Sequence record: MZ318361
From: Escherichia phage T7
DNA length: 36,942 bases
Reading direction: 5' to 3' (one strand)
A program made the translations under genes and the position numbers. This document shows, in pieces, positions 20,363 through 21,584 of the stretch. The notes under the pieces are model-generated. The model searched no databases. It saw only the letters and a list, made by a program, of their open reading frames with translations, and was not told the DNA's origin. The number at the start of each line of letters is the position of its first letter. Within the stretch, counting starts at the first letter, position 1.

Positions 20363-20385
20363 TAATACGACTCACTATAGGGAGA
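20363..20385 (+). promoter_or_regulatory. T7 promoter phi10 (perfect consensus) followed by the strong gene 10 leader and Shine-Dalgarno
   Basis: TAATACGACTCACTATAGGGAGA then ...TTTAACTTTAAGAAGGAGATATACATATG. Confidence 0.9.
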
Positions 20386-20442
20386 CCACAACGGTTTCCC
20401 CCTAGAAATAATTTTGTTTAACTTTAAGAAGGAGATATACAT

Positions 20443-21537
20443 ATGGCTAGCATGACTGGTGGACAGCAAATGGGTACTAACCAAGGTAAAGGTGTAGTTG
20501 CTGCTGGAGATAAACTGGCGTTGTTCTTGAAGGTATTTGGCGGTGAAGTCCTGACTGCGTTCGCTCGTACCTCCGTGACCACTTCTCGCCACATGGTACG
20601 TTCCATCTCCAGCGGTAAATCCGCTCAGTTCCCTGTTCTGGGTCGCACTCAGGCAGCGTATCTGGCTCCGGGCGAGAACCTCGACGATAAACGTAAGGAC
20701 ATCAAACACACCGAGAAGGTAATCACCATTGACGGTCTCCTGACGGCTGACGTTCTGATTTATGATATTGAGGACGCGATGAACCACTACGACGTTCGCT
20801 CTGAGTATACCTCTCAGTTGGGTGAATCTCTGGCGATGGCTGCGGATGGTGCGGTTCTGGCTGAGATTGCCGGTCTGTGTAACGTGGAAAGCAAATATAA
20901 TGAGAACATCGAGGGCTTAGGTACTGCTACCGTAATTGAGACCACTCAGAACAAGGCCGCACTTACCGACCAAGTTGCGCTGGGTAAGGAGATTATTGCG
21001 GCTCTGACTAAGGCTCGTGCGGCTCTGACCAAGAACTATGTTCCGGCTGCTGACCGTGTGTTCTACTGTGACCCAGATAGCTACTCTGCGATTCTGGCAG
21101 CACTGATGCCGAACGCAGCAAACTACGCTGCTCTGATTGACCCTGAGAAGGGTTCTATCCGCAACGTTATGGGCTTTGAGGTTGTAGAAGTTCCGCACCT
21201 CACCGCTGGTGGTGCTGGTACCGCTCGTGAGGGCACTACTGGTCAGAAGCACGTCTTCCCTGCCAATAAAGGTGAGGGTAATGTCAAGGTTGCTAAGGAC
21301 AACGTTATCGGCCTGTTCATGCACCGCTCTGCGGTAGGTACTGTTAAGCTGCGTGACTTGGCTCTGGAGCGCGCTCGCCGTGCTAACTTCCAAGCGGACC
21401 AGATTATCGCTAAGTACGCAATGGGCCACGGTGGTCTTCGCCCAGAAGCTGCAGGAGCTGTCGTATTCCAGTCAGGTGTGATGCTCGGGGATCCGAATTC
21501 GAGCTCCGTCGACAAGCTTGCGGCCGCACTCGAGTAA
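20443..21537 (+). CDS. gp10: Engineered major capsid protein (gene 10, residues 1-348) fused in frame to a polylinker-encoded tail
   Basis: 364-aa ORF MASMTGGQQMG...AVVFQSGVML then GDPNSSSVDKLAAALE encoded by GGATCC GAATTC GAGCTC..GTCGAC AAGCTT GCGGCCGC..CTCGAG TAA. Confidence 0.95.
   Translation: MASMTGGQQMGTNQGKGVVAAGDKLALFLKVFGGEVLTAFARTSVTTSRHMVRSISSGKSAQFPVLGRTQAAYLAPGENLDDKRKDIKHTEKVITIDGLLTADVLIYDIEDAMNHYDVRSEYTSQLGESLAMAADGAVLAEIAGLCNVESKYNENIEGLGTATVIETTQNKAALTDQVALGKEIIAALTKARAALTKNYVPAADRVFYCDPDSYSAILAALMPNAANYAALIDPEKGSIRNVMGFEVVEVPHLTAGGAGTAREGTTGQKHVFPANKGEGNVKVAKDNVIGLFMHRSAVGTVKLRDLALERARRANFQADQIIAKYAMGHGGLRPEAAGAVVFQSGVMLGDPNSSSVDKLAAALE
21489..21534 (+). other. Synthetic multiple cloning site (BamHI, EcoRI, SacI, SalI, HindIII, NotI, XhoI) in frame at the 3' end of gene 10
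   Basis: Seven palindromic restriction sites packed contiguously in 46 bp. Confidence 0.95.
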
Positions 21538-21545
21538 CTAGTTAA

Positions 21546-21584
21546 CCCCTTGGGGCCTCTAAACGGGTCTTGAGGGGTTTTTTG
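21546..21584 (+). terminator. T7 RNAP terminator Tphi
   Basis: CCCCTTGGGGCCTCTAAACGGGTCTTGAGGGGTTTTTTG hairpin plus U-run. Confidence 0.9.

Follow-up and report, generated by a model that had tools for sequence, protein, structure and literature searches.

In wild-type T7, gene 10 is translated mostly as the capsid protein 10A (345 codons) and to about 10% as 10B (398 codons), which arises via the heptamer GGTTTTC. Among the T7Select display vectors (Novagen), the class mark of the 415 type is that the phi10 promoter and ribosome-binding site are kept; the 10-3 and 1-x types are not known to carry the promoter, and those of the 1-x type have a weakened start site as well. The sequence GGTTTTC is the −1 frameshift signal of gene 10 (PMC1635266). 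In T7Select415-1, up to 50 amino acids can be displayed at the C-terminus of gp10B, in 415 copies (PMC3444042, Table 1); T7Select415 needs no helper plasmid and has an insert limit of about 50 amino acids (PMC1635266). T7 select 415-1b (Merck/Novagen) is the parent strain, called 'T7-wt', in the study of Xu et al. (2021, PMC8365609), and a p10B-Tat fusion made in the same vector by the same laboratory has been seen by western blot (PMC5859711).

We analysed a stretch of 36,942 nucleotides (record MZ318361, hereafter the window), which is a whole T7-type genome with its left end starting TCTCACAGTGTACGG. Two sibling records of the same length, MZ318362 ('T7_del_holin_F10') and MZ318363 ('F20'), are T7-delta-holin passages 10 and 20. 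The region around gene 10 is almost certainly the capsid-display cassette of T7Select 415-1b, and the window a laboratory derivative of that vector, T7-delta-holin passage 1. The construct is already known, a commercial vector within a published laboratory genome, and not a natural novelty. The finding is chiefly of value for curation: a record entitled 'Escherichia phage T7, complete genome' derives from a commercial cloning vector, and datasets for comparative work or machine learning should not count it as natural diversity.

Promoter, leader and capsid reading frame

The upstream part of the cassette has the following features (window positions).

20363..20385, + strand: phi10 T7 class III promoter (−17 to +6), exact consensus TAATACGACTCACTATAGGGAGA, same in wild-type T7
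20380..20442, + strand: s10 5' leader, 63 nt, from the alignment to V01146
20380-20400, + strand: 5' stem-loop of the s10 leader
20429-20434, + strand: Shine-Dalgarno sequence AAGGAG, followed by an 8-nt spacer and the ATG at 20443
20443-21537, + strand: display ORF of 364 codons (364 amino acids), ending in VMLGDPNSSSVDKLAAALE and the stop (longer read-out GVMLGDPNSSSVDKLAAALE and stop)
20443..21486, + strand: capsid gene 10, residues 1-348 in the 10B frame, identical to the wild-type 10B protein
20443-20475, + strand: T7-Tag MASMTGGQQMG, within capsid gene 10
21451..21486, + strand: recoded stretch, from the alignment to V01146, codon reading and primer match

A first-pass annotation of this DNA had stated that gene 10 keeps its native promoter, leader and Shine-Dalgarno sequence. 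For the promoter and the Shine-Dalgarno sequence this is correct: transcription starts (+1) at 20380, where phi10 is annotated in a sibling record too, and the Shine-Dalgarno sequence, spacer and ATG of gene 10 are those of V01146. The leader departs from the wild type at one base, T>C at 20401 (RNA position +22), its only difference from V01146. This position lies directly 3' of the 5' stem-loop. The substitution abolishes an XbaI site and leaves the predicted leader fold unaffected (−19.1 versus −19.3 kcal/mol).

The 364-residue protein (calculated mass 38.4 kDa) is the single possible translation product of the cassette, and no gene 10 20-mers that would indicate a second copy occur elsewhere in the window. 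The Pfam family Gp10A-like spans capsid residues 62-341 (E=7.7e-115) and the PDB 10A chains 2xvr/3j7w match residues 1-343, which places the fusion point just past the folded capsid domain.

The DNA is that of wild-type gene 10 up to residue 336. Codons 337-348 are altered synonymously with respect to V01146 (GCT>GCA, GGT>GGA, GCA>GCT, GTG>GTC, GTT>GTA and others), and a PstI site, absent from wild-type T7, is newly present at 21449. Within this stretch the slippery GGTTTTC aligns with CGTATTC in the window, and GTGGTTTTCAAA has become GTCGTATTCCAG by synonymous recoding plus one extra C. The extra C, at 21469, joins 10A and 10B into one continuous frame. Since the slip site is recoded and one C is added, every ribosome should read straight into the 10B frame; removal of the frameshift site is what makes display uniform. 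In the sibling records the CDS of the capsid protein bears the label 'minor capsid protein ... produced by a -1 frameshift'; with the slip site gone, this label is incorrect here.

The locus thus resembles wild-type gene 10 in its promoter, its leader (bar 1 nt), its DNA to residue 336, its protein to residue 348 and its terminator, but differs in the recoded slip site and in having a polylinker peptide in place of 10B residues 350-398.

Polylinker, stops and terminator

Beyond residue 348 the cassette continues as follows.

21487..21534, + strand: polylinker encoding GDPNSSSVDKLAAALE, from the site scan
21489, 21495, 21501, 21508, + strand: BamHI, EcoRI, SacI and SalI, abutting polylinker sites
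21514, 21520, 21529, + strand: HindIII, NotI(EagI) and XhoI, abutting polylinker sites
21535-21537, + strand: TAA stop codon, ends the display ORF
21535..21546, + strand: TAACTAGTTAAC, stops in three frames (TAA, TAG, TAA)
21537 and 21541, + strand: overlapping SpeI and HpaI sites, from the site scan
21544..21585, + strand: Tphi terminator, a 15-bp hairpin (21544-21579) and then a T-run, from the terminator scan
21454-21473, + strand: T7Select UP primer site, on the recoded stretch
21560-21579, − strand: T7Select DOWN primer site, within Tphi

The annotation's reading of the 3' end, capsid to residue 348 followed by GDPNSSSVDKLAAALE, seven contiguous sites, TAA and Tphi, is borne out by the ORF reading and the site scan. 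The seven sites fill 21489-21534, a block of 46 bp that forms the last 46 coding bases before the stop. The polylinker takes the place of wild-type 24014-24159 (the rest of 10B). Six-base palindromes number 7 in this block, whereas 46 bp of the window hold 0.28 of them on average and never more than 4 elsewhere; the 46-mer has a single exact copy in the window and found no match in 100 shuffles. Such a polylinker is far more than chance would produce. None of the seven enzymes has a site in wild-type T7 (V01146). Tphi folds with −23.7 kcal/mol (z = −3.2) and matches the wild type from AACCCCTTGGGG on.

EcoRI, SacI, SalI, HindIII and NotI each cut the genome once. BamHI and XhoI each cut it twice, which concerns anyone who reuses the vector for display; their second sites (33995 and 33988) are due to an extra block at 33988-34000 that is described below.

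These results agree with the annotation, which took the cassette as the mark of a synthetic construct. For a natural T7-like phage with a capsid gene that by chance ends like this, the one argument is the otherwise near-wild-type T7 backbone, and we give this reading a negligible probability. Seven palindromes abut within 46 bp, and wild-type T7 lacks every one of these sites; the recoding consists of synonymous changes alone and is limited to the slippery site. In a set of 50,697 phage records the cassette junction occurs only in the sibling records, and the junction TTCCAGTCAGGTGTGATGCTCGGGGATCC has no exact match in viral, genome or metagenome contig collections, which argues against a natural origin. 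A vector match was found and, in these collections, no natural homologue with the same 3' end.

The 46-bp block is identical to the multiple cloning site (MCS) of a pET-type vector deposited as 'Micromonospora plasmid' (T7lac, His-SUMO-FGF, MCS, His6, Tphi), and the reading frame of DPNSSSVDKLAAALE corresponds to the pET 'b' frame. The cassette shares with vectors of the pET-21b/28b type the 46-bp block and the s10 leader and Tphi modules, but there the XhoI site leads into His6 in a plasmid with a T7lac promoter, whereas here the block belongs to a capsid fusion within the replicating genome of a phage and runs into stops in three frames.

This likeness raises the possibility that the assembly is a chimera of T7 reads and pET plasmid reads. 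The complementing host of the sibling study contained pET-32a-17.5, a plasmid with the same s10 leader, MCS and Tphi; pET vectors have the same 46-bp MCS and Tphi; and the genomes of that study were assembled de novo from lysates (PMC8365609). However, pET has a His6 tag and about 70 bp between XhoI and Tphi, whereas here XhoI is followed by TAACTAGTTAAC, which directly adjoins Tphi, and the pET-type vector compared has nothing that matches the recoded stretch on the gene 10 side (GTGATGCTCGGGGATCC). The same arrangement recurs in the two sibling assemblies and in a Logan contig from an unrelated run, SRR23446325, which is 100% identical over 20416-21572 (1,157 bp); the T7Select UP site is matched as well. 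We consider a chimera extremely unlikely and reject it because of what follows XhoI and because of this independent recurrence.

T7Select UP and DOWN are the sequencing primers of the kit, and their sequences are printed in PMC5859711. The two sites flank the cloning site, with a predicted empty-vector amplicon of 126 bp, and wild-type T7 has no T7Select UP site.

Vector class and lineage of the genome

The assignment to a T7Select-type high-copy vector, which the annotation gave as probably of the 415-1b class, is supported by the SNPs that separate the window from its siblings, by PMC8365609, by the vector length of 37,314 bp, by the UP and DOWN sites, by the identical contig from SRR23446325 and by the pET-type polylinker. 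Identity with the vendor's reference rests on PMC8365609, length arithmetic and the primer sites. Against V01146, the backbone shows the following deletion junctions.

568..578, no strand: early-region deletion junction, wild-type 579-2746 absent, 11-bp microhomology AAGTCGCACGA
8991..8992, no strand: gene 3.8 deletion junction, wild-type 11163-11515 absent (phi3.8 promoter, gene 3.8)
33717..33718, no strand: gene 17.5 (holin) deletion junction, wild-type 36344-36552 absent (209 bp), lineage-specific

According to BLAST blocks and junction sequences, the early-region deletion takes genes 0.3-0.7 and promoters A2/A3; it is described as belonging to T7Select 415-1b (PMC8365609). The gene 3.8 deletion ends in the GATC of a wild-type BglII site, and its coordinates (11163-11515) are the same in PMC8365609. 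With the net loss of 102 bp in the 10B tail, V01146 yields 39,937 − 2,168 − 353 − 102 = 37,314 bp, which is the right end given for the vector (PMC8365609). Also missing from the window relative to V01146 are 3 bp in gene 1.4 and the 160-bp right terminal repeat, the latter not being in the record; about 20 point differences from V01146 include 20401 T>C. As a side observation, PMC8365609 prints the early deletion as 579-2717, which conflicts with the sequence and with the paper's own total.

The window differs from MZ318362 by 5 SNPs and from MZ318363 by 9 SNPs (BLAST over all 36,942 bp), and it shares with them the cassette, the leader variant and the XhoI/BamHI scar. It carries the F1-only substitution gp12 G780R (24553 A) and does not carry S344stop, a mutation present in both siblings, a combination that fits Table 2 of PMC8365609. 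Judged by these variants, the window corresponds to the passage-1 T7-delta-holin genome, MZ318361.

Another T7Select class, either mid-copy 10-3b or low-copy 1-1b/1-2, would imply weak fusion expression and 10A encoded by a helper. The polylinker and recoded junction are presumably common to the T7Select family, and the SRR23446325 contig, which begins downstream of the promoter, cannot separate the classes. The promoter and start site speak against such a vector: phi10 here is the exact consensus, and the s10 Shine-Dalgarno sequence, spacer and ATG are wild type. In addition, the length arithmetic fits the 37,314 bp of 415-1b, and PMC8365609 names 415-1b and reports growth on plain BL21 without a helper. 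We regard another class as very unlikely, and the 10-3b and 1-1b classes were rejected on the intact promoter and ribosome-binding site and on length.

T7Select 415-1b is the closest described system. The window resembles it in the phi10/s10 start, 10B residues 1-348 without the frameshift site, the 'b'-frame polylinker, the stop, Tphi, the UP and DOWN sites, the deletions 579-2746 and 11163-11515 and the arithmetic giving 37,314 bp. It is unlike the vector in lacking gene 17.5, in the 3-bp deletion in gene 1.4 and in the extra XhoI-BamHI block.

In a 415-1b cassette, transcription of gene 10 by T7 RNA polymerase would begin at phi10, a strong promoter left as in the wild type, and the s10 leader and Shine-Dalgarno sequence would support translation at wild-type level. 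With GGTTTTC recoded and a base added, all ribosomes would be in the 10B frame to residue 348, then read the pET-style 'b'-frame polylinker and meet the three-frame stops, ahead of Tphi. As this is the sole capsid gene, 415 of 415 subunits would bear the EcoRI-HindIII insert or, in an empty vector as here, the 16-residue linker peptide, attached just beyond the capsid fold, whose Pfam domain stops at residue 341. That all 415 subunits carry the tail or insert follows from helper-free growth on BL21 (PMC8365609) and from the single gene 10 copy. We infer that a host without a helper would allow nothing but display on every subunit; the copy number and the exposure of the tail are taken from the literature.

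Changes within the lineage

The first-pass annotation left out the removal of the frameshift site, the leader substitution, the second BamHI and XhoI sites, S344stop and the status of the genome as a holin-deleted derivative. Three features (20401 T>C, the block at 33988-34000 and a missing SphI site) are not explained by PMC8365609 and are not known from the vendor's design.

33988..34000, no strand: XhoI-AG-BamHI block CTCGAGAGGATCC, directly after the gene 18 stop, seemingly lineage-specific

The block stands in place of wild-type TATACTCAAGG(CC) and overwrites a TATACT hexamer located 8-13 bp upstream of the annotated start of E. coli promoter E (wild-type 36836). It is common only to the window and the two sibling records. 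Primers R3 and F18.5 of PMC8365609 match wild-type T7 and mismatch the window at the block; since these primers were designed on the vector reference, the block seems to be specific to the lineage. A literature search and the methods and primer table of PMC8365609 gave no published explanation for it. PMC5859711 does not mention XhoI, and uses BamHI for cloning in a pUC shuttle plasmid.

The holin junction is stated to bear an SphI site from primers R1/F2 (PMC8365609). There is no SphI site anywhere in the window, nor are the 11 bases predicted from the primers (GCATGCTATGT) present. Given de novo assembly, the absence of SphI and the XhoI/BamHI block are probably real features of the sequenced phage.

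The variant leader (20401 C) has no exact match in three contig collections. The contigs retrieved by way of the neighbouring gp9 all have T at 20401, except that of sibling MZ318363 and one contig that is too short, and none of those with T is demonstrably derived from T7Select; the cassette contig of SRR23446325 starts 15 nt too late to cover the position. Two other XbaI sites persist in the genome, so that deliberate removal of the one in the leader would serve no cloning purpose. We lean towards a spontaneous mutation of the stock or the lineage.

The two siblings share a further change within the cassette. In both MZ318362 and MZ318363, 21473 C>A converts codon 21472-21474 from TCA to TAA (S344stop), whereas the window retains the intact 364-codon ORF. 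By passage 10 the mutation had become the consensus of the sibling populations. With it the capsid protein ends after 343 residues and the polylinker tail is silenced, and a stop at this point, upstream of the cloning site, would silence any insert in later passages. The T7Select UP primer site, moreover, has its 3' end at position 21473. S344stop is listed in PMC8365609 and is not discussed in the sections consulted. Stop codons are enriched in T7Select415 libraries (PMC3444042). We tentatively suggest that the empty-vector tail may be costly and that S344stop may be an adaptive self-curing to a capsid of 10A length (343 versus 345 codons). If so, high-copy T7 display vectors would, taken together with PMC3444042, be evolutionarily unstable under plain serial passage.

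The gene 10 leader and capsid product across passages

In the gene 10 mRNA leader, a T>C change at window 20401 (+22) removes an XbaI site. The C was seen in the three genomes of this lineage only; all other examined T7 contigs that cover the site carry T. Folding of the leader predicted no change from the substitution, which may belong to the vendor's design or may have arisen spontaneously.

The passage-10 and passage-20 genomes (MZ318362 and MZ318363) carry 21473 C>A (TCA>TAA, S344stop), which leaves a capsid protein of 343 residues with its display tail silenced. The T7Select UP primer site has its 3'-terminal base at this same position. 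S344stop is entered in the mutation table of PMC8365609; the passages of that paper that were consulted do not discuss it. In both records the capsid CDS (20443-21474) is annotated as a 'minor capsid protein ... produced from gene 10 by a -1 frameshift'. This is unfit for the construct, in which the slippery site is recoded and no frameshift occurs; the gene 10 product here is the sole (major) capsid protein.

The holin deletion and the block after gene 18

At the gene 17.5 (holin) deletion junction (window 33710-33730) GGTACAAG is joined to ATGGAAAAGG. The published construction with primers R1/F2 leads one to expect GGTACAAG-GCATGC-TATGT-ATGG. There is no SphI site anywhere in the window and the junction is 11 bp shorter than designed, so that the deposit is at odds with the construction as published.

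Directly 3' of the gene 18 stop, window 33988-34000 reads CTCGAGAGGATCC (XhoI-AG-BamHI) in place of wild-type T7 36823-36833 (TATACTCAAGG). The TATACT hexamer that lies shortly before the start annotated for E. coli promoter E is thereby overwritten. Among phage records the block is shared by the siblings MZ318362 and MZ318363 only, and it is not described in the methods or primer table of PMC8365609. Primers R3 and F18.5 of that paper match wild-type T7 at this site but mismatch the window.

Backbone deletions and differences from wild-type T7

In the early region, wild-type 579-2746 is missing and the flanks meet at an 11-bp direct repeat, AAGTCGCACGA (window 568-578), a pattern typical of spontaneous deletion. 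PMC8365609 prints this deletion as 579-2717, which is inconsistent both with the sequence and with the paper's own total of 37,314 bp. The gene 3.8 deletion (wild-type 11163-11515; window 8991-8992) ends in the GATC of a wild-type BglII site, suggesting that it was engineered by means of restriction sites. The right end of the window, 36942, corresponds to wild-type 39777. Lacking the 160-bp right terminal repeat, this 'complete genome' is short of one of the two copies of the direct terminal repeat.

Differences from V01146 (wild-type T7) common to all three passages: point changes and a 3-bp deletion in gene 1.4
3616 (RNA polymerase L872F), 4762, 5527/5528, 5944, 6252, 6765, 8003, 13874, 14396, 15898, 16624, 17352, 27255, 30653, 35779, 36624, 36789

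PMC8365609 reports most of these as mutations arising in F1, the passage-1 genome. Since they are already fixed at passage 1, they may instead have pre-existed in the actual vector stock, as departures from its in-silico reference. There is also a minor mismatch between table and sequence for F1: window 14103 is G, the wild-type base, and A in F10 and F20 (passages 10 and 20), whereas Table 2 of PMC8365609 places 14106 G>A (gp5.3 V49I) among the changes that F1 already has.

A polylinker match outside phage records

NZ_CP130428.1, whose cloning site equals the 46-bp polylinker of the cassette, is a 6,137-bp RefSeq record named 'Micromonospora sp. NBRC 110009 plasmid'. It contains a T7 promoter, lacO, the s10 leader, a His6-SUMO-like-FGF fusion ORF, the pET MCS, His6, Tphi and aph(3')-Ia. 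Evidently this is a laboratory expression vector of the pET type, and therefore probably contamination rather than a native actinomycete plasmid.
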